13,492 bases of DNA from Naegleria gruberi (GCA_000004985.1 GG738994.1); one strand, 5' to 3'. Shown: positions 2 to 11,378, counted from the stretch's first letter. The notes: a model not told the origin generated them from the sequence alone. A program made the numbers and translations.

Positions 2-1762
2 AATGCTCTATATATTGCTAAAACTACATTTATTCGTATGTTTGATCTTACCACTAGAAAAATGTCTTTAATTGCTGGTAGTGAAACAGAGGCTGCTCCG
101 AGTGGAGGCTATAATACTTATGACAGGAACCCAGAGGATGCCAGATTTACTTTTATTAAGGAAGTGAGAGTATTAGATGGAGTAGTGTATTTTCTTAATA
201 ATTGTTATGTGACTGACAGTTGTATCAATTATTTTTCTTTGGGTGATCGTATTTTTAACCTTGACAGGGGTTATACTGAAACTGGTGTGTCTTTTGTTGT
301 CTTCAAGGATAGTGAGGGTGAAGTCAATTCACTCGTAGCTACAGCAGAAAAGTTGGTCTATCATAAGAGGCCACATTATAATAGATTTATTAGGAGAACG
401 GAAGCTGATACCATTATCAAGTTGATTGATAACAAAGCTGGAAAACAGGCCTTGGTAACAACCACCAAAGTTATCGATTTTTCAAATGAAGCTACTCTCT
501 TCACTTTTGATTCACCATTTGCAGCTAGGGATGTGGTAATGATATCAGCAACAGCTATTGTATATTCTAGTAGTAGTGGCTATTACTTGAACAAAGTTGA
601 TGCTAAAGGAGAAACAGTACTTGCAGGTATTGGAAACACTATCCAAATTGGAGATTATGGACCTGGTGAAGAAGCATACGGAACCACTACTAAAGGTGTA
701 GCAGTTGTTGACTCAACTTTATACATTTCAGAATATGATAATATGAGAATAAGAAAAGTCAACATTAATACTGGAATTATTTATCCCCATATTACTTTAA
801 CATGCTACCCTTCAAAACTCAAAATGTCCAAAGACAATAACAAGTTATTTTTCCTATGTAGTGACGGTCCAAGTGTATCTATAATGCAGTACATTTTCAG
901 TACAAATTTAATAACAACTGTAAAGTCAGGTTTTCCAGCTGCCACATTTAAGGGTTTTACCTTTGACGCAATTACTGGAGCACTTTTTTATTCAACTTAT
1001 TCTAATGGTGTTACTCAAATTTGTAGACTTAATCCTAATTCCTGTAAGACAATCACTACACAATTTACTGGTGGTGTTTATGGAGACATTGATGCCTACA
1101 ATGGATACATCTATGTTATCTCAAGTGTTGGTTCCATCTATAAGATAAGATATGATACAATGGACGTACAAGTAATTGGCGCCTTCTATCTTGCTGGCTA
1201 TCCAACAATACACATTACAAAACAAGGTACCATATTAATTGGCTCTCATACAGCTGTTTATAGATTTGAAGGTGCACAGGATGGTTCTTTTTATCCAGTT
1301 TCAACTAATTTTGTAATTGCTGGTGATGCTCTTCCACCAGAGGGTACAACCAGTTTATGGTATAGAGAAATCAGCCAAGTTGCAATGTCTGATGATTATC
1401 AAAGATTATTTATTGCTGATCCACATCACCTTGGTGGTGTTACACAATTGAATGCCAAGACCTCATCCTGTTGGTCCTACAAGTATACTAATACTGCAGG
1501 AAATCTGGTATTACCAACTGGAACTTATTGTTCAATTTCTTGTAATTCTGTTGCTTCTAATAATCCAACCGTTTGTAGTGGTTCTGGTTCTTGTACTGCT
1601 TACTTGGTCAATCCTTCTTACTTGGGAAAACCATTTTGTGATTGTGAATATGGCTATTCTGGTACAACTTGTTCTGATTATACCTGTNTTGGTTACCCAA
1701 AAAATGAAACAACTGGTTGTAAATCTCATGGTACTTGTGTTGGATATAATACTTGTAACTGA
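2..1762 (+). CDS. 5'-truncated ORF of a large extracellular protein. It has NHL-type beta-propeller repeats (about 2-1450) and then six-Cys EGF-like repeats from 1469. It stops at TGA 1760-1762, which sits at a consensus Cys position.
   Basis: The 574-aa ORF in frame 2 stays open upstream of ATG 38 to the window edge (..NALYIAKTTFIR-MFDL..), so the Met at 38 is probably internal. NHL-like motifs include GVAVVDSTLYISEYDNMRIRKVNINTG, FTFDAITGALFYSTYSNG and YNGYIYVISSVGSIYKIRYD. From 1469 the repeats are EGF-like, for example CSGSGSCTAYLVNPSYLGKPFCDCEYGYSGTTC and CKSHGTCVGYNTCN. Position 1688 is an ambiguous base. Confidence 0.85.
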   Translation, partial: NALYIAKTTFIRMFDLTTRKMSLIAGSETEAAPSGGYNTYDRNPEDARFTFIKEVRVLDGVVYFLNNCYVTDSCINYFSLGDRIFNLDRGYTETGVSFVVFKDSEGEVNSLVATAEKLVYHKRPHYNRFIRRTEADTIIKLIDNKAGKQALVTTTKVIDFSNEATLFTFDSPFAARDVVMISATAIVYSSSSGYYLNKVDAKGETVLAGIGNTIQIGDYGPGEEAYGTTTKGVAVVDSTLYISEYDNMRIRKVNINTGIIYPHITLTCYPSKLKMSKDNNKLFFLCSDGPSVSIMQYIFSTNLITTVKSGFPAATFKGFTFDAITGALFYSTYSNGVTQICRLNPNSCKTITTQFTGGVYGDIDAYNGYIYVISSVGSIYKIRYDTMDVQVIGAFYLAGYPTIHITKQGTILIGSHTAVYRFEGAQDGSFYPVSTNFVIAGDALPPEGTTSLWYREISQVAMSDDYQRLFIADPHHLGGVTQLNAKTSSCWSYKYTNTAGNLVLPTGTYCSISCNSVASNNPTVCSGSGSCTAYLVNPSYLGKPFCDCEYGYSGTTCSDYTCXGYPKNETTGCKSHGTCVGYNTCN

Positions 1763-2024
1763 GCGAATGGTTATGGCGGAGCACAATGCCACTTTTTCTT
1801 GCAATGGTACACTTTCTAGTAGCAATCAAGTTTGTGGAGGCAATCGTAAGTGTATTGGTCCAAATACTTGTGAACCAATGTGTTATGGAATTGCTGCAAG
1901 TAAAACTGCCACAGTTTGTTCTGGACAAGGTAATTGTACAAGTGAAAACCATTGCACATGTTCATATGGTAGATATGGTTCAAAGTGTGAATATTCTCTT
2001 CCATGTGAATCGCAATGTAGTTTG
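1763..2024 (+). CDS. Continuation of the same EGF-repeat coding sequence. The frame changes twice: frame 2 runs to about 1795, then frame 0 runs to TGA 2025-2027.
   Basis: Directly after the TGA, frame 2 reads ANGYGGAQCHFF. This completes the motif C-N-[TGA]-A-N-GYGG-x-x-C, which matches CNCNNGYGGKNC further downstream. Frame 0 then reads SCNGTLSSSNQVCGGNRKCIGPNTCEPMCYG...CSGQGNCTSENHCTCSYGRYGSKCEYSLPC, which are perfect six-Cys EGF-like repeats. Removing one T from the T5 run at 1793-1797 joins the two frames. Confidence 0.6.
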
Positions 2025-3009
2025 TGAAAATGGGGGAAATTGTACCTTTAGTAAGGGTGTTGAGGTTTGTTCTTGTCCTCCAGGATTTGCTGGTAAAACA
2101 TGTGATCCAGCATGTTCATCAAATAAGAATTGTACAGACCAATATTTCCCTATTTGTGACGTTTCAGGTGTTTGTACATATGAATGTTTATCAGATGGTG
2201 ATTGTGCTACAGTTGTTGGCAGACCAATGTGCGAAACTGGAAGAAACGAATTCGACATTGGTGGTAAATGTATTGCAGGATGTATAAATGATACATCATG
2301 CATTGCAAAGGGAATGCAATATTGTAATGATGGTGTCTGTAGTAATTATGCTTGTGCAGCAGATGCTGATTGTGTTTCTCGTGGCTATTCCCAATGTGCT
2401 GATTTTGAATGCAGAGATGAATGTCATGTCAATAGTGATTGTTCCGACTTTGGTAAATACTCCATCTGTGGAGCTGATCCATCCAATAATTCTACCTATC
2501 ACAGATGCATTCCAAGATCATGTTTCAATAACAGTGATTGTGCAGATCCAATGACTGGAACTCCAAGATGTGATTTGAGTACTTATTTATGTGCAAAGGC
2601 AGATTGTTCAATCGATTCTGATTGTTACTCTTATGGTTATTCACTTTGTTCCAATAGTTTTTGTAAAATTGAATGTCTTTCTCATACTGATTGCAACAAA
2701 CCTGGTTTGCAAAGATGTGGTTTGAACAATACTGTACCTACGGAATATCGTAGATGTTTGGAATCTTGTGATTCTACTTGTGAAAAATGTTCAGAAAACA
2801 GAATCACATGTTTGCAATGCTCAACTGGATTTGTTGTAGACAATCTTGGTAAATGTGTTATTGATTCCACCAATCCTGTTAACAACTCTACTAATCCTCA
2901 AAACAATACCAATCCAGTCGATCCAGTCAACCCAACTAACGATACTAACCCAATTAAAATACTACTACCCCAAGTAGTAATAATACCACTCCAAGTAATA
3001 ATACCATAA
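2005..3009 (+). CDS. Continuation in frame 1. It contains one EGF-like repeat, seven tandem four-Cys repeats of about 30 aa (CxxxSDC..C..C), laminin/TNFR-like CxxC..GF modules, and an N/T/P-rich stalk rich in N-glycosylation sequons. The stop at 3007-3009 is probably an artefact.
   Basis: Frame 1 resumes the consensus at NVVCENGGNCTFSKGVEVCSCPPGFAGKTC. Repeats follow, such as ECLSDGDCATVVGRPMC, CAADADCVSRGYSQCADFEC, CHVNSDCSDFGKYSIC, CFNNSDCADPMTGTPRC and CSIDSDCYSYGYSLC. The tail reads NPVNNSTNPQNNTNPVDPVNPTNDTNP. From 2958 the +2 frame reads NTTTPSSNNTTPSNNTINTNNGQSTI into the gap. One extra A in the A4 run at 2956-2959 would join it to the upstream frame. Confidence 0.65.
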   Translation: MNRNVVCENGGNCTFSKGVEVCSCPPGFAGKTCDPACSSNKNCTDQYFPICDVSGVCTYECLSDGDCATVVGRPMCETGRNEFDIGGKCIAGCINDTSCIAKGMQYCNDGVCSNYACAADADCVSRGYSQCADFECRDECHVNSDCSDFGKYSICGADPSNNSTYHRCIPRSCFNNSDCADPMTGTPRCDLSTYLCAKADCSIDSDCYSYGYSLCSNSFCKIECLSHTDCNKPGLQRCGLNNTVPTEYRRCLESCDSTCEKCSENRITCLQCSTGFVVDNLGKCVIDSTNPVNNSTNPQNNTNPVDPVNPTNDTNPIKILLPQVVIIPLQVIIP

Positions 3010-3037
3010 ATACCAACAATGGACAATCCACAATAAT

Positions 3038-3634
3038 NNNNNNNNNNNNNNNNNNNNNNNNNNNNNNNNNNNNNNNNNNNNNNNNNNNNNNNNNNNNNNN
3101 NNNNNNNNNNNNNNNNNNNNNNNNNNNNNNNNNNNNNNNNNNNNNNNNNNNNNNNNNNNNNNNNNNNNNNNNNNNNNNNNNNNNNNNNNNNNNNNNNNNN
3201 NNNNNNNNNNNNNNNNNNNNNNNNNNNNNNNNNNNNNNNNNNNNNNNNNNNNNNNNNNNNNNNNNNNNNNNNNNNNNNNNNNNNNNNNNNNNNNNNNNNN
3301 NNNNNNNNNNNNNNNNNNNNNNNNNNNNNNNNNNNNNNNNNNNNNNNNNNNNNNNNNNNNNNNNNNNNNNNNNNNNNNNNNNNNNNNNNNNNNNNNNNNN
3401 NNNNNNNNNNNNNNNNNNNNNNNNNNNNNNNNNNNNNNNNNNNNNNNNNNNNNNNNNNNNNNNNNNNNNNNNNNNNNNNNNNNNNNNNNNNNNNNNNNNN
3501 NNNNNNNNNNNNNNNNNNNNNNNNNNNNNNNNNNNNNNNNNNNNNNNNNNNNNNNNNNNNNNNNNNNNNNNNNNNNNNNNNNNNNNNNNNNNNNNNNNNN
3601 NNNNNNNNNNNNNNNNNNNNNNNNNNNNNNNNNN
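3038..3634. other. Assembly gap: a run of 597 N characters.
   Basis: The gap is seen directly as a run of n. The X-only ORFs on the track across it are artefacts. Confidence 0.99.
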
Positions 3635-3653
3635 TGAACTTCACTTATTGTAA

Positions 3654-4330
3654 TGTACAACTGGTTACATAACTACTGATCTCTCTCAACCATGTTCAAT
3701 GTGTAACTCTACCCTTAAACTAACTCTTGATCAAAATGGAAAATGTGTTTGTGATGCTAGCAATGGATACGTTGTTGGTGCAACAGGAGCTTGTGTCAAG
3801 TACACAGCCAAGTGTCCTATTGCATGTGGTTCCAATGGGGCCTGTCAATTGTTAACTCCAACAACTTCAGGATGTGTGTGTAAGAATGGTTTTATCACAA
3901 CCAATGAAACTAAACCATGTTCATCTTGTCCTCAAGGAAAGATTAATTCTTCCTCTAAATGTGTATGTGATACAGTCAATGGATACACTATAAATGGTAC
4001 TGGTTGTGGCTGTGATGCTTCTCGTGGATATATTGCTGGTTCTGATGGACTTTGTTCTTGCAATGCAAATCTCAATTTGGTTACCTATGGTTCATCATGT
4101 GTCTGTAAGCTTAACTATCATTTAGTTAATGGATCTTGTGTTTTAATTCCTCCAGCTTGTTATGGTAGTTCGAGTTGTGGAATCCATGGACAATGTATGT
4201 ATGAGGATGTAAATAACACTGCCCGTACAATCTGTCAATGTGACACTGGATACACCACTGCCTCTTACAGTACCTCTCTTTGTGTAGACTGTGCTAGAGA
4301 TTATCGTATGGATAAAAATTATATCTGTAA
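3654..4330 (+). other. Cys-rich repeat region with CxCDxxNGYxxxxxGxC modules and CxxC/CxxxxC pairs.
   Basis: Examples are NGKCVCDASNGYVVGATGACV, SSKCVCDTVNGYTINGTGCGCDASRGYIAGSDGLCSC, and a six-Cys unit CYGSSSCGIHGQCMYEDVNNTARTICQCDTGYTT. Confidence 0.6.
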
Positions 4331-7300
4331 AAAGAGCTGTGTGCTCGATGGTTACAATGATGATTGTACTACCTATGTTCCTGCTGATATTTGTGCTTAT
4401 ACAAATCCCCAAACAATTCCATTCTGTGGATTTAATATTTACAGGGTAAGACAAAGAAGATTTTTAAGGCAGAATTATACAGGTGAACTTGTTTATATTG
4501 GAAGGGACATGGTTAAAGATTTGGACAAATCAATGATTTATTATGATACATTGGCTAAAAACAAAACCAGAGATGCCATGCTTGAACTTGCCAAAGCAGG
4601 AGTAGTTTGTGACAGCAAATGTAAAGAACATTTGACTGTCCTGTATTGTAAATCATTGGTACCTATGTGTGATGGAACCGATGCTCCAATAGAAAGAACA
4701 TTTTGTAAGCAAACTTGTATTGACATTTGGTCCCAAAAGTTAAATTACACTGTTAATTTGGAATCAAAGTGTGAAGGATTGTCAGTAGAAGATTCTTGTG
4801 ACTCGCGTCCATATATCAACCCTTCAACTCAATGCTTTGGTGTTCACTATTTAAATTCATCTGTTTGTTCAGGAAGGGGTCAATGCATTCAAAAAGATAC
4901 TTGTAATTGTAATAATGGATATGGAGGAAAAAATTGTGAACAATTCGTTTGTTTTATTTATAAGGATACCGATATACCAGTTTGTAATTATCGTGGAAAG
5001 TGCGTTGGACCACACACTTGTGCCTGTAATGGTCCTTGGACTGGAAGTGATTGTCAGATACCTCTCTGTAATCGTAAAACTGAAAAACAAGGCGGTTGCA
5101 ATTTCAATGGAGTTTGTAAGCTTATTCTTGGAAGTCCATCTTGTATCTGTGCTTCAAGTGGTAATTGGGCTAAATCAGATGTTTCTTGCTCTGTTTGTGC
5201 AACTGGATGGGGAGGACCTGGTTGTAATGTTCCAGTTTGTAATGGGGTTATATCAACAAGTCCAGATGTTTGTGGTGGAAGAGGTGGATGTGATTCGATT
5301 CGTCTTGCACAACCATCTTGTACTTGTTTGAAAGGATATGAAGGAAACAATTGCCAAAACTTTAAGTGTAATGAAATTGATAGAAATAGCACTTCTGTGT
5401 GTTCTGGACGTGGTACTTGTGCTGGCTTAAACACTTGTGTTTGTAAGGGTAATTTCGACCCAGCTAAATTCTGTTCTGAATGTACACCGGCCTATAATGG
5501 AACTGATTGTACTGAAAGAGTTTGTACTGAAGCAGGTACTTGTAATGGTAATGGTATTTGTAATTCAAATGGAAAATGTGACTGTACTGGAAATTGGGTT
5601 GGTCAATTTTGTGACAAATGTTTACCTGGATTTGTTGGTTCTTCATGTAATATTAAATGTGATTGTAATGGAAGAGGAAGTTGTAACAATGATGGATCAT
5701 GTATCTGTTCTGAAAATGCAGAAGGTACCAAATGTGAAACTTGTAAAACAGGATGGTATGGTGATAAGTGTGATTTCTCAATTGATGCTTCTTCATTTGG
5801 ATTTTCATCAAATGGTGACTCCATCTCAGGAACAGTTTATTCTTCTCTCAAGAGAAAGTTTGATTGTTCTGAACTAATTTTGGAATCTTCAAAGCTAGGT
5901 AAAGGAGCAGTGTGCGTTGTTAATAGTGATTCAAACTTGATGACCATTTCTCTTGGAAGAAATGCTTCAATTGTCCTTGATGAGGTTCTTACATTCAAGT
6001 CATACTTTAATTCTTCATCAACTGTTTCTGTAACATTTGCTGAAAGAGATTATATACCAACAAATCCTTCCATCTCTGTCACTACTGATAAGACAACAAT
6101 TTCAAGAGCTTGTGGTTTCGTCTATTTGGATGCCTCTGGCTCCACATCAACAGATCGTAGAACATTGCAATTCTCTTGGAGTGTTCAGTCTGCACCTTCT
6201 CCACTTAATGGTCTTACTTTAACTAGTTTAATTACTAATCAACAAGGGTCTTCAGGAGTCACTATTAATTCAAACAGTCTTGGTGTTGGCAGTTATTCTG
6301 TTACAGCAACCATCACAAGTCCATTTTCTGGTTTAAGTGCTTCTTCAACTGTCTCATTCCTGGTTACTGATTTGACAGCTCCTATCGTTTCAATTAAGGA
6401 GGGCTCTGAAAGTACAATGACTATTGGAAAGATTTATTCAATCAATCCAAAGATTACATTCCCAAGCTGTTATGGTGGAAATGGACCATTTACGTTTACA
6501 TATGCTTTGGATGTTAGAAATGTCATTCCAGTAGTTGTTAAACAAAAGTATAATATTCTCGTCTTCAGTGAAGATTATACCAAGATTACTGAACCAGGCG
6601 ATTATTACTTCACTTTCACTGTTTCTCAAGCTGGAGCATCAAGTGTGACAGTTCCATTTAAGGTAACTGCTAAGGCACTTCCTTTGAGCGTTGGATTCAA
6701 TATTGGTGATAGAACTCAATCTGTGGAAACTGAAGTTTCGTTCACCGTTTCCAAGTCTGACCCAAGTAATCCTTCAGATAATTCTGGAACAGTTGTCTTG
6801 TCATGTTTGGATCTTGACAATAGTGCAGATTGTAGCGGATTTACCTCTGGTGAAGCAAATATTGACCAAACTACTTTGAAATTCTCTAAATTTATGGTTC
6901 CCGGCCCATATCTCTTCACTGCTACATTTACAAAGGGTTCAAGAAGTAGCTCTGCAAGTATTAAAGTGACTGTTATTGATCAACCAAAGGACACTGTCAT
7001 TAGAGTGTCTATTGCTGCTCCTCCAAATACTGACTTGACAGCTGTTGATCCATCTTCTGATTTCATATTACAAGCTTATTCATCAGATGTTCTGTCAACT
7101 GACAGAGTTTACACATGGTCATCACCTGACCTTGATATGTCTGGAATTGTTACCAGTAACAAGTACATTCTTCTTCCAAAGATCTTACTTGTTCCAGGTA
7201 CTTTCCATATTATTAACCTTAATGTAGTAGATGATCAAAGATCTGGTGAAGCAACTATTTCATTTACAATCAACTCTCCACCAACAGTTGGTATTTTGGA

Positions 7301-8816
7301 AGTTTCTCCTGCTACAGGTGTTGCTTTACAAGACGATTTCCAAATCAAGTGTGGTAATGGTTGGTATGATACTCAACTTCCTTTGATGTATGAATTCAAA
7401 TACAGAGTGGTAGGAGATTCAACTTGGAAGGTTTTGTCAGAAATGTCTGAAAAGAAATCAATCACTTCTCAATTACCAGCTGGTAAAATTGAAATCAAGA
7501 CAATTGTTTATGATTCTCTTTCTGCCTCCTCTGAAACTACAACTCTTGTTACTGTTACTGTCCCTTCCCTTAGTGAAGCCATTGCTGCTTTGAATGTTTC
7601 TCAAATGGGTACAGTTTCAGTTGCTTCAGTTTCATCTGCATTGAGTTTAGTAAGTGAAATTACTGTTTCCACTCCAGAACAAAAACAAGCCCTAGCACAA
7701 GCTAATAAGGCTCTTGTAGACAAATTCTTTGAACAACAAGACGTACAATCTCAAATCGTTTCTGAAACTTCTCAATCTGCCAGTTCAAAAGTTTCTGTTA
7801 TTTCTTCCATTAGTAATTGTTTAGGAAACTTCCCAGATGAAACCATTTCCAAGGTTATTGATCAGTTCTCTTCAACTATCTCATCAGCTTCTTCTTCATC
7901 TAATGTTAATATGAAGACAGATGATATTCAAAACTCCAAGGAAGCTGCTTTGAACCTCAAGAGCTATGTTTCAAATGCCATTTCAAAGAGAGCAGTAACT
8001 ACTCTTACTGTCAAGGATTTGGCAAAGATTGATGGCATCTATAGCAATATTGTTAATGTCGAACTTAAGAGTGCAGTTGCTGATATGCCAGCTGTCAGAA
8101 GTACTGGTGTTGATTCATCTATTTATGCCAGACTTGTCAGTATTTCAACCCTTAGTGGTTTGTCTGGTTTTGTTGATGATACAAGCTTTTCTTCATCCTA
8201 TTTTGAAATGAAGAATGTTTTCAGCTCTATGAAGAGATTTGAAAATGTTGACAGTGTTAAAATTGTCACAAAGGTTTACAAGTTGACCAACTCAACATTG
8301 AAAGCAATCAGTAAGGTGATTGACTTTGTCATTACTGAAAATGATAACAACCTTTCCTTTGCATCTGAAAATATCACTCTTGCCACAATCAAGATTGAAA
8401 AAGTCAAAACAGCAAGAACCTCATTCACACAAACACAAATTTCATGTTATTCAGTTCAAAACAATGTCTATTCCATCTCGCCAAATTGTAAAGTTGTTAG
8501 CACCAATAGTGCAACTGCAGATATTTCTGTTACTAACACTGGTTCCTATGTTGTTGCTGAAGTCACTGTGGACAGCCCAATTACTCCAACAAATTCCACG
8601 CCGAAACCAACAGAATCGAATAATAATAACATTGTCACTCCAATTCCTGGTGTTAATCAATCAGACTCCAACTTGTATTACATCATTTTTGTTCTGGCCA
8701 TAATACCTATTGTGTTATTGATAATTGTTGGTATATTGGTTTGTATTTGTTGTATGATCAAGAAGAAGAAGAAAAGACCAAGCCCAGGTCCAAGAGATAT
8801 CGAACTAACTGCTTAA
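3654..8816 (+). CDS. A 5.1 kb intronless exon encoding the C-terminal about 1720 aa of a giant type-I membrane protein. The order is Cys-rich repeats, a Frizzled-like CRD, nine EGF-like repeats, a REJ-like module, a helical Ser-rich region, a GPS-like remnant, a mucin-like stalk, one transmembrane helix and a short Lys-rich tail. The ATG at 3699 is not the true start.
   Basis: The track gives 1705 aa with no stop over 5118 nt of AT-rich DNA. The same frame is open from 3654, right after a TAA at 3651-3653 that abuts the gap. There it reads CTTGYITTDLSQPC, which mirrors CSTGFVVDNLGKC at 2820-2860. There is no signal peptide at MCNSTLKL. The C-terminus is YYIIFVLAIIPIVLLIIVGILVCICCMI followed by KKKKKRPSPGPRDIELTA and TAA at 8814-8816. 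Confidence 0.92.
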   Translation, partial: CTTGYITTDLSQPCSMCNSTLKLTLDQNGKCVCDASNGYVVGATGACVKYTAKCPIACGSNGACQLLTPTTSGCVCKNGFITTNETKPCSSCPQGKINSSSKCVCDTVNGYTINGTGCGCDASRGYIAGSDGLCSCNANLNLVTYGSSCVCKLNYHLVNGSCVLIPPACYGSSSCGIHGQCMYEDVNNTARTICQCDTGYTTASYSTSLCVDCARDYRMDKNYICKKSCVLDGYNDDCTTYVPADICAYTNPQTIPFCGFNIYRVRQRRFLRQNYTGELVYIGRDMVKDLDKSMIYYDTLAKNKTRDAMLELAKAGVVCDSKCKEHLTVLYCKSLVPMCDGTDAPIERTFCKQTCIDIWSQKLNYTVNLESKCEGLSVEDSCDSRPYINPSTQCFGVHYLNSSVCSGRGQCIQKDTCNCNNGYGGKNCEQFVCFIYKDTDIPVCNYRGKCVGPHTCACNGPWTGSDCQIPLCNRKTEKQGGCNFNGVCKLILGSPSCICASSGNWAKSDVSCSVCATGWGGPGCNVPVCNGVISTSPDVCGGRGGCDSIRLAQPSCTCLKGYEGNNCQNFKCNEIDRNSTSVCSGRGTCAGLNTCVCKGNFDPAKFCSECTPAYNGTDCTERVCTEAGTCNGNGICNSNGKCDCTGNWVGQFCDKCLPGFVGSSCNIKCDCNGRGSCNNDGSCICSENAEGTKCETCKTGWYGDKCDFSIDASSFGFSSNGDSISGTVYSSLKRKFDCSELILESSKLGKGAVCVVNSDSNLMTISLGRNASIVLDEVLTFKSYFNSSSTVSVTFAERDYIPTNPSISVTTDKTTISRACGFVYLDASGSTSTDRRTLQFSWSVQSAPSPLNGLTLTSLITNQQGSSGVTINSNSLGVGSYSVTATITSPFSGLSASSTVSFLVTDLTAPIVSIKEGSESTMTIGKIYSINPKITFPSCYGGNGPFTFTYALDVRNVIPVVVKQKYNILVFSEDYTKITEPGDYYFTFTVSQAGASSVTVPFKVTAKALPLSVGFNIGDRTQSVETEVSFTVSKSDPSNPSDNSGTVVLSCLDLDNSADCSGFTSGEANIDQTTLKFSKFMVPGPYLFTATFTKGSRSSSASIKVTVIDQPKDTVIRVSIAAPPNTDLTAVDPSSDFILQAYSSDVLSTDRVYTWSSPDLDMSGIVTSNKYILLPKILLVPGTFHIINLNVVDDQRSGEATISFTINSPPTVGILEVSPATGVALQDDFQIKCGNGWYDTQLPLMYEFKYRVVGDSTWKVLSEMSEKKSITSQLPAGKIEIKTIVYDSLSASSETTTLVTVTVPSLSEAIAALNVSQMGTVSVASVSSALSLVSEITVSTPEQKQALAQANKALVDKFFEQQDVQSQIVSETSQSASSKVSVISSISNCLGNFPDETISKVIDQFSSTISSASSSSNVNMKTDDIQNSKEAALNLKSYVSNAISKRAVTTLTVKDLAKIDGIYSNIVNVELKSAVADMPAVRSTGVDSSIYARLVSISTLSGLSGFVDDTSFSSSYFEMKNVFSSMKRFENVDSVKIVTKVYKLTNSTLKAISKVIDFVITENDNNLSFASENITLATIKIEKVKTARTSFTQTQISCYSVQNNVYSISPNCKVVSTNSATADISVTNTGSYVVAEVTVDSPITPTNSTPKPTESNNNNIVTPIPGVNQSDSNLYYIIFVLAIIPIVLLIIVGILVCICCMIKKKKKRPSPGPRDIELTA
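4392..4799 (+). other. Frizzled-type cysteine-rich domain (FZ-CRD)-like module.
   Basis: There are ten Cys. The core spacing CKEHLTVLYC-KSLVPMC-DGTDAPIERTFC-KQTC gives C-x8-C-x6-C-x11-C-x3-C. This matches the Fz CRD core (..FLCSMYAPVC..PPCRSLC..) as I recall it. A conserved Pro precedes the third Cys, and a Trp (IDIW) follows the CxxxC pair. Confidence 0.4.
4833..5771 (+). other. Array of about nine six-Cys EGF-like repeats of the tenascin / Dictyostelium type.
   Basis: Examples are VCSGRGQCIQKDTCNCNNGYGGKNCEQFVC, VCNYRGKCVGPHTCACNGPWTGSDCQIPLC, CSVCATGWGGPGCNVPVC, CDKCLPGFVGSSCNIKCDCNGRGSCNNDGSCIC and CETCKTGWYGDKCDF. Confidence 0.85.
6100..7570 (+). other. REJ-like module (receptor for egg jelly / polycystin-1 type). 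The core signature lies at 7270-7400.
   Basis: A Cys-poor, Ser/Thr-rich beta-strand region shows the pattern FTINSPPTVGILEVSPATGVALQDDFQIKCGNGWYDTQLPLMYEFKYRV. This fits the REJ signature nAPPsgG..v.P..GvAL...F.i.C.gW.D...PL.Y as I remember it from PKD1 and suREJ. Upstream there are SW/TW-containing repeats (SWSVQSAPSPLNG, TWSSPDLDMSG). Confidence 0.5.
8676..8759 (+). other. A single predicted transmembrane helix. It follows a Ser/Thr/Pro/Asn stalk (8580-8675) and precedes a (AAG)n-encoded KKKKK stop-transfer sequence.
   Basis: The sequence YYIIFVLAIIPIVLLIIVGILVCICCMI is 28 consecutive hydrophobic residues, with a basic cluster immediately after it. Confidence 0.8.
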
Positions 8817-9026: not shown

Positions 9027-9914
9027 TCATGTAACTCTGTAAACCTTGATTCTATTATTTCCAGTATCAACAATAAACAAACGAGATGACCCGTAGCAGA
9101 ATGCAATTCCAGAAGGATATTTCAATGAATTTTCATGGTTTCCAAAGCTACCAATGCAAGTAGAACCAGAAAAGGGATTGTTAGGATGAAATTTTGAAAT
9201 TCTATGTGAATCCCACTCTGTAAGAAATATATCACCAGTTGACTTGTCCACAAAAACAGAGTTTGGTGCTTGAAATTCTCCCTTATCATTCCCAATACTT
9301 CCAAAGCTACTAATAAATTCTCCATTAGATTTCAGTATCTGTATGCGATTATTTCCACTGTCAGAAATAATGATATTCCCAGCACTGTCAATGTCAATAT
9401 CTCTTGGGAATGAGAATTGACCATATTCCTTTCCCATAGATCCAATCGATTTCAGTAATTCACCACCTGGAGAAAAAACTACAATTCTATGTTTAAACCA
9501 ATCACAAACATAGATATTTCCCTCATAGTCAACCACAACACCTGTTGGAGAATCCATTACATTCTTTGTTGTAACTCCTCCCCATCTCCATATCTCATTT
9601 CCATTAAAATCATATTTACAAATCAATGAATCTCGAGTGAAACTAATAATTAAAGTGTGATCCCAATGAACTGTCACTGCATTTGGTTTGAATGGTGTCG
9701 TAAACATGTACTTGAATGTCAGAGTTGACTCATCAAAAACCTGAATACGTCTATTATCTGTATCCACAACAAATATTAATTGATTTTTGAAATCAATAGC
9801 CACATCAGATGGATTCTTGAATTGACCATTCTGAGAACCATAACTTCCAATGCATCCAATCAATTCAAACTCGGACTGGCTCGTTTTCATTCCCGAACAA
9901 CCATTCACAGTCAT
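9027..9914 (-). CDS. Six-blade NHL-repeat beta-propeller protein. The ATG is at 9912-9914, and the track's TTG start at 9917 is an alternative-start artefact.
   Basis: Classic NHL repeats are present: PSDVAIDFKNQLIFVVDTDNRRIQVFDES, PTGVVVDYEGNIYVCDWFKHRIVVF, PRDIDIDSAGNIIISDSGNNRIQIL, PNSVFVDKSTGDIFLTEWDSHRISKF and PSGIAFCYGSSRLFIVDTGNNRIKVYRVT. The stop is TGA at 9027-9029. Confidence 0.85.
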   Translation of the reverse strand: MTVNGCSGMKTSQSEFELIGCIGSYGSQNGQFKNPSDVAIDFKNQLIFVVDTDNRRIQVFDESTLTFKYMFTTPFKPNAVTVHWDHTLIISFTRDSLICKYDFNGNEIWRWGGVTTKNVMDSPTGVVVDYEGNIYVCDWFKHRIVVFSPGGELLKSIGSMGKEYGQFSFPRDIDIDSAGNIIISDSGNNRIQILKSNGEFISSFGSIGNDKGEFQAPNSVFVDKSTGDIFLTEWDSHRISKFHPNNPFSGSTCIGSFGNHENSLKYPSGIAFCYGSSRLFIVDTGNNRIKVYRVT

Positions 9915-9917
9915 CAA

Positions 9918-10282
9918 TGTTGATGTTGTTTGATACTGACTATTATGATGACCATTAAAATTATGAAAATAGGACAGTGATGAATTCTTCTTAATTTCAT
10001 ATTGTTATTATTATTATTATCAATCATATAATTGTCATTGTTACTCATCGGAGTAGTTTCTATCAATGTTGTATGATGATCATGATCCATCAGTGCACTA
10101 CTATTAAAATTACTATTATTATTGTTGTTATTGTGATTATGATTGGGTAGAGATGAAGTCATCATCATCAACCTTCCATCAGAATCATAATGATGTGATG
10201 GTTGTGATGTTGGTGGTACCTCCGAAGCACAATCATCAAAGGATCGTTTCATTCGGTTTTTTTGTTTGTTGTATTGATGCAT
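9918..10282 (-). CDS. Possible N-terminal low-complexity, Asn/His-rich extension of the NHL gene. It lies in a different frame and needs a frame shift at about 9915-9990 to join.
   Basis: The 122-aa ORF reads MHQYNKQKNRMKRSFDDCASEVPPTSQPSHHYDSDGRLMMMTSSLPNHNHNNNNNNSNFNSS...DNNNNNN. It has moderate GC and is unlike spacer sequence. Just after the Asn tract it crosses into the NHL frame, which opens immediately after the (TAA)n reading of the same tract. Confidence 0.45.
10001..10018 (-). repeat. (AAT)6 tract encoding poly-Asn. A second imperfect AAT/AAC/CAT tract encoding NHNHNNNNNNSNFNSS lies at about 10100-10146.
   Basis: Seen directly in the sequence. Confidence 0.85.
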
Positions 10283-10411: not shown

Positions 10412-11378
10412 TCAATGTTTTCTTCCCTTCTTAGTACTACCTCCCACTTTCTTACTTGTAGTAGAGCCACTAGATGTTTGTGCCTTACTCTTTCCCTCAT
10501 ATACAGCATTCTTGAACTTGTCAAAATACTTAAAATTGGTAACATCTGAGAGAATGGCCTTTGAACGTTGGAGAACATTCTGTCCTTTTGTTGGAGCATA
10601 GTTGCCACCACTACTTGGAGTTGATGCAGAGGAGAGATTATCATGTGAAGATAATAATCTTGTTGGGGATGTTGAATTGTTAACACTTTGTTGCTCAGTA
10701 GAGAATTCTGTACAATTGGTATTAGGAGATCTATTCGAAACACAGGATTCTGTGGAAATGTGTGAATCAGTGCTCTCTGGTGGCTTGTAATAAAGTAGTG
10801 CAAAATAGATTTTCTCCTTCATTATTTTGGAGTCGAATATTGGTTTGACTCGTTGAAGCTTGGAACTAAAATCATCCTCTGCGGAGAAATACTCAAACTC
10901 TTCATTAAGATTATTTTCTTCACTTGAAATAAGGCCATTATCAGCAATACTACCCTTAGACTCGTCACTAGGAGTTTCTTCAGTTGAAGCAACACTACCA
11001 GATTTTCCATTATCCGAAAGCGAATGATCATCAACAGTGCAACATTTTTCTTTTTCATAACTCTTTCTTACTGAAGGAAATTTAGCACATTCTTTTGGTT
11101 CATATTTAGAAAAAGAAAGAGAAGCAATTTTAATTCCTTTCACCCAATAGAACACCAAAACAGATAACAAATATTCGTAGATTAAGGTGCAAATGTAATT
11201 CTCTTCTCTCTTTCTTGTTACTAGCTGTACATGAAGAATAGCAGAACCATCCAGACACCACACTAAAGTGCAATCCCTTATCTTCAGCCATTTCCTTTAA
11301 AATCGGTTTTTTTGGTTCATCATTATCGGTTTCATCGATAATAAGTTCTAGGTTGCATGTAAGAAAGCCATGTTTCAT
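10412..11378 (-). CDS. Hypothetical acidic Ser-rich protein with a frame discontinuity. The N-terminal part (from ATG 11376-11378) is in one frame, and the rest (to TGA 10412-10414) is in another. The join is either a +/-1 frameshift in 11130-11263 or an intron at 11092-11221.
   Basis: ORF A (11130-11378) reads MKHGFLTCNLELIIDETDNDEPKKPILKEMAEDKGLHFSVVSGWFCYSSCTA. ORF B (10412-11263) reads ..KYEPKECAKFPSVRKSYEKEKCCTVDDHSLSDNGKSGSVASTEETPSDES..GSTKKGRKH. The sequence aaaaaaaATG precedes the start. A minus-strand GTAACA donor at 11221 and a ccaaaAG acceptor at 11092 would give an in-phase 130-nt intron. Confidence 0.6.

Follow-up and report, generated by a model that had tools for sequence, protein, structure and literature searches.

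The cysteine-rich domain (CRD) of Frizzled receptors, the Fz domain, is characterized by ten cysteines that follow the pattern C*C*CX8CX6C*CX3CX6,7C*C*C (PMC4256011). These residues form the disulfides C1-C5, C2-C4, C3-C8, C6-C10, and C7-C9 (PMC4256011; PMC6938638). The origin of Frizzled receptors that carry an Fz domain is usually placed in the ancestor shared by opisthokonts and amoebozoans, and both fungi and amoebozoans have seven-transmembrane (7TM) receptors with Fz domains (PMC12716839). Many amoebozoan CRDs have diverged to below the thresholds of Pfam and SMART (PMC10445921). According to PMC4256011, which cites Pei and Grishin (2012), computational work has revealed Fz-related CRDs, recognized mainly by their cysteine pattern, in a wide range of eukaryotes and in diverse domain contexts. 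Here, we describe a ten-cysteine module that is encoded by a DNA stretch of 13,492 bases (the window), which is an entire scaffold of the heterolobosean Naegleria gruberi (GCA_000004985.1 GG738994.1). The module comprises residues 232-367 (window positions 4392-4799, plus strand) of an open reading frame (ORF) of 1705 amino acids (3699-8816, plus strand), whose product is 100% identical to the entry "predicted protein [Naegleria gruberi]". Judged from sequence comparisons, the C-terminal two thirds of the module (C3-C10, residues 304-367 approximately) are probably a remote homolog of the animal FZ-CRD and represent a divergent variant of it.

The module is located in frame 0 of the host ORF between EGF-type modules. 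It is bounded by a cysteine on both sides and contains exactly ten of them (C232, C243, C304, C308, C317, C324, C336, C340, C358, and C367), which are separated by gaps of x10, x60, x3, x8, x6, x11, x3, x17, and x8. Because the neighbouring cysteines belong to the EGF modules on either side, the ten residues form a self-contained unit. A corresponding module is present at residues 1150-1290 (approximately) of the N. gruberi paralog P0002, a protein of 2628 residues that is 45% identical to the host protein overall. An earlier interpretation of this DNA, the sequence-only reading, had assigned a Frizzled-like CRD to the interval 4392-4799, and the details that it listed are real. The interval is in frame and holds the ten cysteines; the run C-x8-C-x6-C-x11-C-x3-C corresponds to C308, C317, C324, C336, and C340 (4620-4718, plus strand); the proline preceding the third cysteine of the run (LYCKSLVPMC) is Pro322, two residues before C324; and the aromatic residue following the CxxxC pair is Trp344, four residues on. 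This run agrees with the core spacing CX8CX6C...CX3C of the Fz signature, and the spacing in the paralog is identical. N-terminal to it, C232-x10-C243 (4392-4427, plus strand) provides candidates for C1 and C2; both are kept in the paralog and lack an independent Fz profile signal. The motif CDSKC (4608-4622, plus strand) contains C304 and C308, and CDSxC is kept in P0002.

The five-cysteine pattern of the core exceeds chance. It arose in 0.03% of the shuffles of residues 225-376 and in 0.7% of the shuffles of the cysteine-rich first 700 residues. No second site with this pattern exists in P0001, P0002 or P0004, and none was found in the EGF-rich relatives P0003 and P0005-P0009. In P0010, P0011, P0013, and P0014, each of the 36 bona fide Fz domains possesses it.

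Several comparisons link the module to Fz domains. In Pfam, Fz (PF01392) is the top family match, with an E-value of 1.9e-5 and 25.6 bits for residues 202-394, and an E-value of 7.1e-6 and 27.0 bits for residues 230-376. None of ten shuffled versions of the module, in which the cysteines were fixed and all other residues were permuted (Cys-preserving shuffles), matched Fz in curated Pfam. The best sequence match of the module in the PDB is the CRD of Frizzled-10 (E-value 0.06). phmmer, run exhaustively against 1.84 billion protein representatives, returned seven proteins at E-values of at most 0.001, namely the query, four animal multi-Fz proteins with 5-13 Fz domains each, and two Sel1-repeat kinases. 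The multi-Fz proteins, the best of which reached an E-value of 4.5e-13, are the only matches that cover the C3-C10 part of the module; three of the four were assigned to a shrimp, a fish, and an acorn worm.

Twenty-two of the Fz domains of the animal proteins matched by phmmer were used to build a profile, and cysteine-rich heterolobosean ectodomains from relatives of the host protein, with a total of 22,399 residues, served as background. In this background, the module ranked first (21.6 bits) and the module of the paralog second (8.0 bits), whereas all other scores were negative. The profile aligned to residues 281-367 (4539-4799, plus strand) with its positions 21-112 of 114, and this was the only positive match over the six frames of the window. 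The score of the whole module was 28.0 bits, compared to 1.6 +/- 3.1 bits for Cys-preserving shuffles, and none of 2000 shuffles scored as high. For C3-C10 alone (residues 306-370), 18.9 bits were obtained, again with 0 of 2000 shuffles as high. The corresponding part of the paralog yielded 14.3 bits, a value reached by 4 of 2000 shuffles. The similarity of the module to bona fide Fz domains thus extends beyond the cysteines, and the Fz signal is located in C3-C10. Low-confidence AlphaFold models further contain helices where the Fz helices H2 and H3 are expected (residues 306-325 and 330-348 in model 1, residues 306-320 and 330-347 in model 2).

The two N. gruberi modules are also related to each other beyond the cysteines (20.2 bits; 1 of 1000 shuffles reached this score). 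Their identity is 26%, compared to 45% for the whole proteins, and all ten cysteines including CDSxC are kept. The module is therefore a conserved disulfide framework whose sequence changes more rapidly than the remainder of the protein. Its surface diverges quickly, whereas the disulfide frame stays fixed. A different situation was found for P0004 (L001, JAESGV010000475.1), a protein with EGF and REJ domains. Its module at residues 708-832 (approximately) follows the canonical Fz spacing exactly (C-x7-C-x44-C-x8-C-x6-C-x20-C-x3-C-x6-C-x10-C-x7-C). Pfam detects no Fz match in it, and beyond the cysteines it is similar neither to the Fz profile (0.1 bits, a score also reached by 856 of 2000 shuffles) nor to the N. 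gruberi modules. For this reason, it was dropped as a link to a canonical ancestor. The P0004 module illustrates that Fz cysteine spacing can exist without detectable homology.

A number of observations weigh against a relationship to Frizzled, or at least against a canonical domain. Most directly, the full ten-cysteine pattern is not realized. There is no cysteine 6-7 residues past C340, where Lys347 is found, and C304, which is present in both paralogs three residues before C3, is an extra, non-canonical cysteine. The register of C336 and C340 depends on the alignment: the alignment with Frizzled-10 assigns them to C6 and C7, whereas the animal profile and MAFFT assign them to C7 and C8, with a deletion of three residues and C6 missing. 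In both registers, nine canonical positions are filled and C304 is the tenth cysteine, and the missing one is C8 or C6. Owing to this ambiguity, no disulfide map can be asserted. The orphaned cysteine is probably partnered by C304. The sequence-only reading had spoken of the core of the ten-cysteine Fz CRD. This holds for the spacing of the five core cysteines; the ten cysteines are not the canonical set, since a canonical position is left unfilled and C304 is additional.

The remaining points of this kind concern the strength of the signal and the N-terminal part. Both fragments stay below the Pfam Fz gathering cut-off of 32.1, so that the Pfam search suggested by the sequence-only reading gave Fz as the best family at a sub-threshold score. 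The module of the paralog has no Pfam Fz match at E-values of up to 10. A profile of the two paralogs, compared with the PDB, retrieved no Fz CRD and only ribosomal protein noise. The hhalign comparison of the paralog pair with the Fz alignment was weak (P 9e-4, probability 22%), as was a Cys-anchored version with four sequences (P 4e-4, probability 14%). AlphaFold reached a predicted local distance difference test (pLDDT) value of 41.4 with the two paralogs only, and of 48.5 after ten animal Fz domains had been added by means of a MAFFT alignment. The part N-terminal to C3 (residues 230-303) scored -1.2 bits against the Fz profile, a value that 543 of 2000 shuffles also reached, and the gap between C2 and C3 comprises 60-64 residues, compared to about 36 in animal Fz domains. 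Word-indexed searches with the module and with a four-sequence alignment returned no further homologs; they also failed to return the query protein, which is taken as a limit of the tool and not as a sign that homologs are absent. An exact look-up of the ORF product yielded no entry. A metagenome scan with an alignment of CRD and EGF modules matched 74 patterns, and none of these was confirmed.

These findings raise the question of whether the module has no relationship to Frizzled and is instead a helical, cysteine-rich spacer specific to its lineage, which resembles an Fz domain by convergence or by chance within a cysteine-rich extracellular protein. The sub-threshold Pfam score, the paralog lacking a Pfam match, the weak profile-profile scores, and the precedent of P0004 with its canonical spacing speak for such a spacer, as do the facts that structural confirmation was not obtained and that no added homologs were found to deepen the profile. 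On the other hand, no Cys-preserving shuffle (0 of 2000) attains the score of the module, and the paralog reaches p of about 0.002 independently. Moreover, only true Fz domains matched the C3-C10 part in the search of 1.84 billion proteins, and the Fz profile singles out exactly the two paralog modules from the cysteine-rich background. We therefore regard an unrelated spacer as unlikely. The Frizzled-like call is thus supported in part: it stands for the similarity over C3-C10 and has to be qualified with respect to the missing canonical cysteine and the paralog without a Pfam Fz match.

The N-terminal third of the module has a different character. The cysteine-free stretch FNIYRV...AKAG quoted by the sequence-only reading is present at residues 245-301. 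Its interpretation as a counterpart of the N-terminal CRD helices does not hold, because the segment contains no Fz signal, exceeds the length seen in animal Fz domains by about 25 residues, and is similar to a Sel1 repeat. The similarity is confined to residues 249-299 (4443-4595, plus strand), a helical stretch between C2 and C3 for which AlphaFold predicts helices at low pLDDT. In the search of 1.84 billion proteins, it matched the Sel1 repeats of two Tritrichomonas musculus kinases with E-values of 2.2e-5 and 3.7e-4. Against the Sel1 repeats of P0012, it scored 20.1 bits, compared to -4.8 +/- 4.3 bits for shuffled sequences, none of which (0 of 1000) scored as high. Furthermore, the Sel1-repeat protein 6ork is the second-best PDB match of the module (E-value 0.44). 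Cysteine-rich Sel1-like repeat (SLR) proteins are known from Helicobacter, and by analogy the entire module could be a disulfide-stapled SLR unit in which the Fz-like score of the C-terminal part is secondary. This explanation is improbable, since the Pfam Sel1 model (PF08238) does not match either fragment tested at E-values of up to 10, only one repeat-length unit exists whereas SLR proteins are tandem arrays, the equivalent segment of the paralog lacks a Sel1 signal, and the Sel1-like stretch is cysteine-free and lies outside the C3-C10 part that carries the Fz signal. We treat the segment as a putative Sel1-like helical insertion or replacement in this copy and not as a sign of membership in the Sel1 family.

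The architecture and origin of the host protein agree with the description of a non-7TM, non-metazoan protein given by the sequence-only reading. An array of EGF repeats of the teneurin/laminin type (residues 379-700; 4833-5798, plus strand; Pfam) lies C-terminal to the module. It is followed by a REJ domain (PF02010), whose best-matching stretch comprises residues 1045-1296 (6831-7586, plus strand; E-value 2.9e-34); the Pfam score of 118.9 bits compares with a cut-off of 25. A single hydrophobic transmembrane stretch (residues 1660-1687; 8676-8759, plus strand) precedes a basic tail of 18 residues. The Pfam scan of the host protein yielded EGF and REJ matches; no 7TM Frizzled domain follows the module, and there is no Pfam match for GPS/GAIN, PLAT or a multi-pass, channel-like region. 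A juxtamembrane GPS-like motif (C-x13-C ... TGSYVV) was identified by eye at residues 1580-1625 (8436-8573, plus strand) and has no support from a hidden Markov model (HMM). It resembles a degenerate GPS; the relative P0003 retains four cysteines at this site (CSQYNRTSGMWHQTNC...VVCSCYTSGLTKV).

The gene model of the host protein is probably cut at its 5' end. This is deduced from three observations: no signal peptide was seen at the start of the ORF 3699-8816, an in-frame stop is located 5' of it at 3651-3653, and an assembly gap (3038-3634) lies directly upstream. The gap is a run of N, which explains why the GC content of this stretch appears to be as low as 15-19%; the value is an artefact. 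A dictyostelid origin had been considered because of the low GC value and was rejected, since the stretch is a run of N and the DNA is that of N. gruberi. Upstream of the gap, a gene at 38-3018 (plus strand) is apparently split over two frames, with ORFs at 38-1762 and 1786-3009. It carries an ambiguous base at 1688 and runs into the assembly gap. The first of these ORFs has no Pfam match; the second is cysteine-rich and has an EGF-like match. Downstream of the host gene, an ORF on the minus strand (9027-9917) codes for NHL repeats (E-value 5.2e-31). Two ORFs beside it on the same strand (9914-10282 and 10412-11263) have no Pfam match.

Taken together, the remote FZ-CRD homolog is probably a disulfide-rich, mostly helical extracellular module that keeps nine of the ten canonical cysteines and has one displaced. 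In this copy, the segment between C2 and C3 looks like a single helical hairpin of the Sel1 type. The module is carried on an EGF stalk in the extracellular part of a REJ-domain protein that spans the membrane once and has a cytoplasmic tail of 18 residues. It would fold as a disulfide-stapled helical domain. Like other FZ-CRDs, it could serve as the head that binds a ligand or partner on a surface protein for adhesion or sensing. Given the short tail, the protein would have to signal via partners, or it would play a role in adhesion.

To our knowledge, Wnt proteins are confined to animals, and Wnt is therefore not a candidate ligand; the result has no bearing on Wnt signalling itself. Among types of ligand, a small hydrophobic molecule or a partner protein would be the likeliest. 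The pocket for a lipid or Wnt-like ligand envisaged by the sequence-only reading is purely conjectural; the module may have a lipid-binding groove.

A more far-reaching proposal is that the module represents a subtype of the Frizzled-type CRD that is new in structure and belongs to Discoba. In this subtype, the C3-C8 (or C6-C10) disulfide would be rewired via the new cysteine next to C3, the lobe of C1-C2 and H1 would be rebuilt around the Sel1-type hairpin, and the domain would be mounted on a polycystin-like single-pass protein with REJ and GPS-like elements. We consider this proposal doubtful. If it were true, the binding surface would differ, and CRDs of the Fz type and ectodomains of the REJ type would have served as surface sensors well outside Amorphea. 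Provided that the fold is confirmed, the displaced cysteine would offer a natural test of how far the disulfide framework of the CRD can be rewired.

The comparison with known systems places the module closest to the animal FZ-CRDs of Frizzled, SFRP, ROR, MuSK, and multi-Fz proteins. It shares with these the core CX8CX6C...CX3C, the proline two residues before C5, the tail C9-x8-C10, the significant profile similarity over C3-C10, and the occurrence as an extracellular, mobile unit among other modules. It differs from them by the missing canonical cysteine, the extra cysteine before C3, the gap of 60-64 residues between C2 and C3, the lack of an Fz signal in the part before C3, a sub-threshold Pfam score, and a host protein without a 7TM or kinase part. 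Because it deviates from the full ten-cysteine pattern and remains below the Pfam cut-off, the module is not classed as a canonical Fz member. The Frizzled/Smoothened-like (Fsl) CRDs of amoebozoans are found on 7TM receptors within Amorphea, whereas the module described here belongs to a single-pass EGF/REJ protein from Heterolobosea (Discoba). Mid1/FAM155, RECK, and the superfamily of FZ, NPC1, folate-receptor, and glypican CRDs are precedents for divergent Fz-related CRDs. No Pfam match of the module to the Mid1/FAM155, RECK or NPC1/folate-receptor/glypican families was seen, and classical Fz is the nearest family.

The remaining part of the host protein is reminiscent of polycystin-1 and the sperm receptor for egg jelly, with which it has in common the REJ domain and the GPS-like motif, detected by eye, beside the membrane. 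In contrast to these proteins, it has one transmembrane stretch and no PLAT or channel-like part, and GPS/GAIN is not detected by HMMs. With SLR proteins, the module shares residues 249-299, which match Sel1 units residue for residue; it differs from them in that it has a single unit and no Pfam Sel1 match, and in that this feature is not kept in the paralog. The public record of the host protein lists no Fz domain, which indicates that modules of this kind escape curated thresholds. With its statistically supported similarity to Fz, this heterolobosean module is a data point outside Amorphea and adds the new context EGF-CRD-EGF-REJ-transmembrane stretch. The most fitting description of the module is that of a variant, within a known and mobile kind of domain, that occurs in a heterolobosean and in a domain context that is new.
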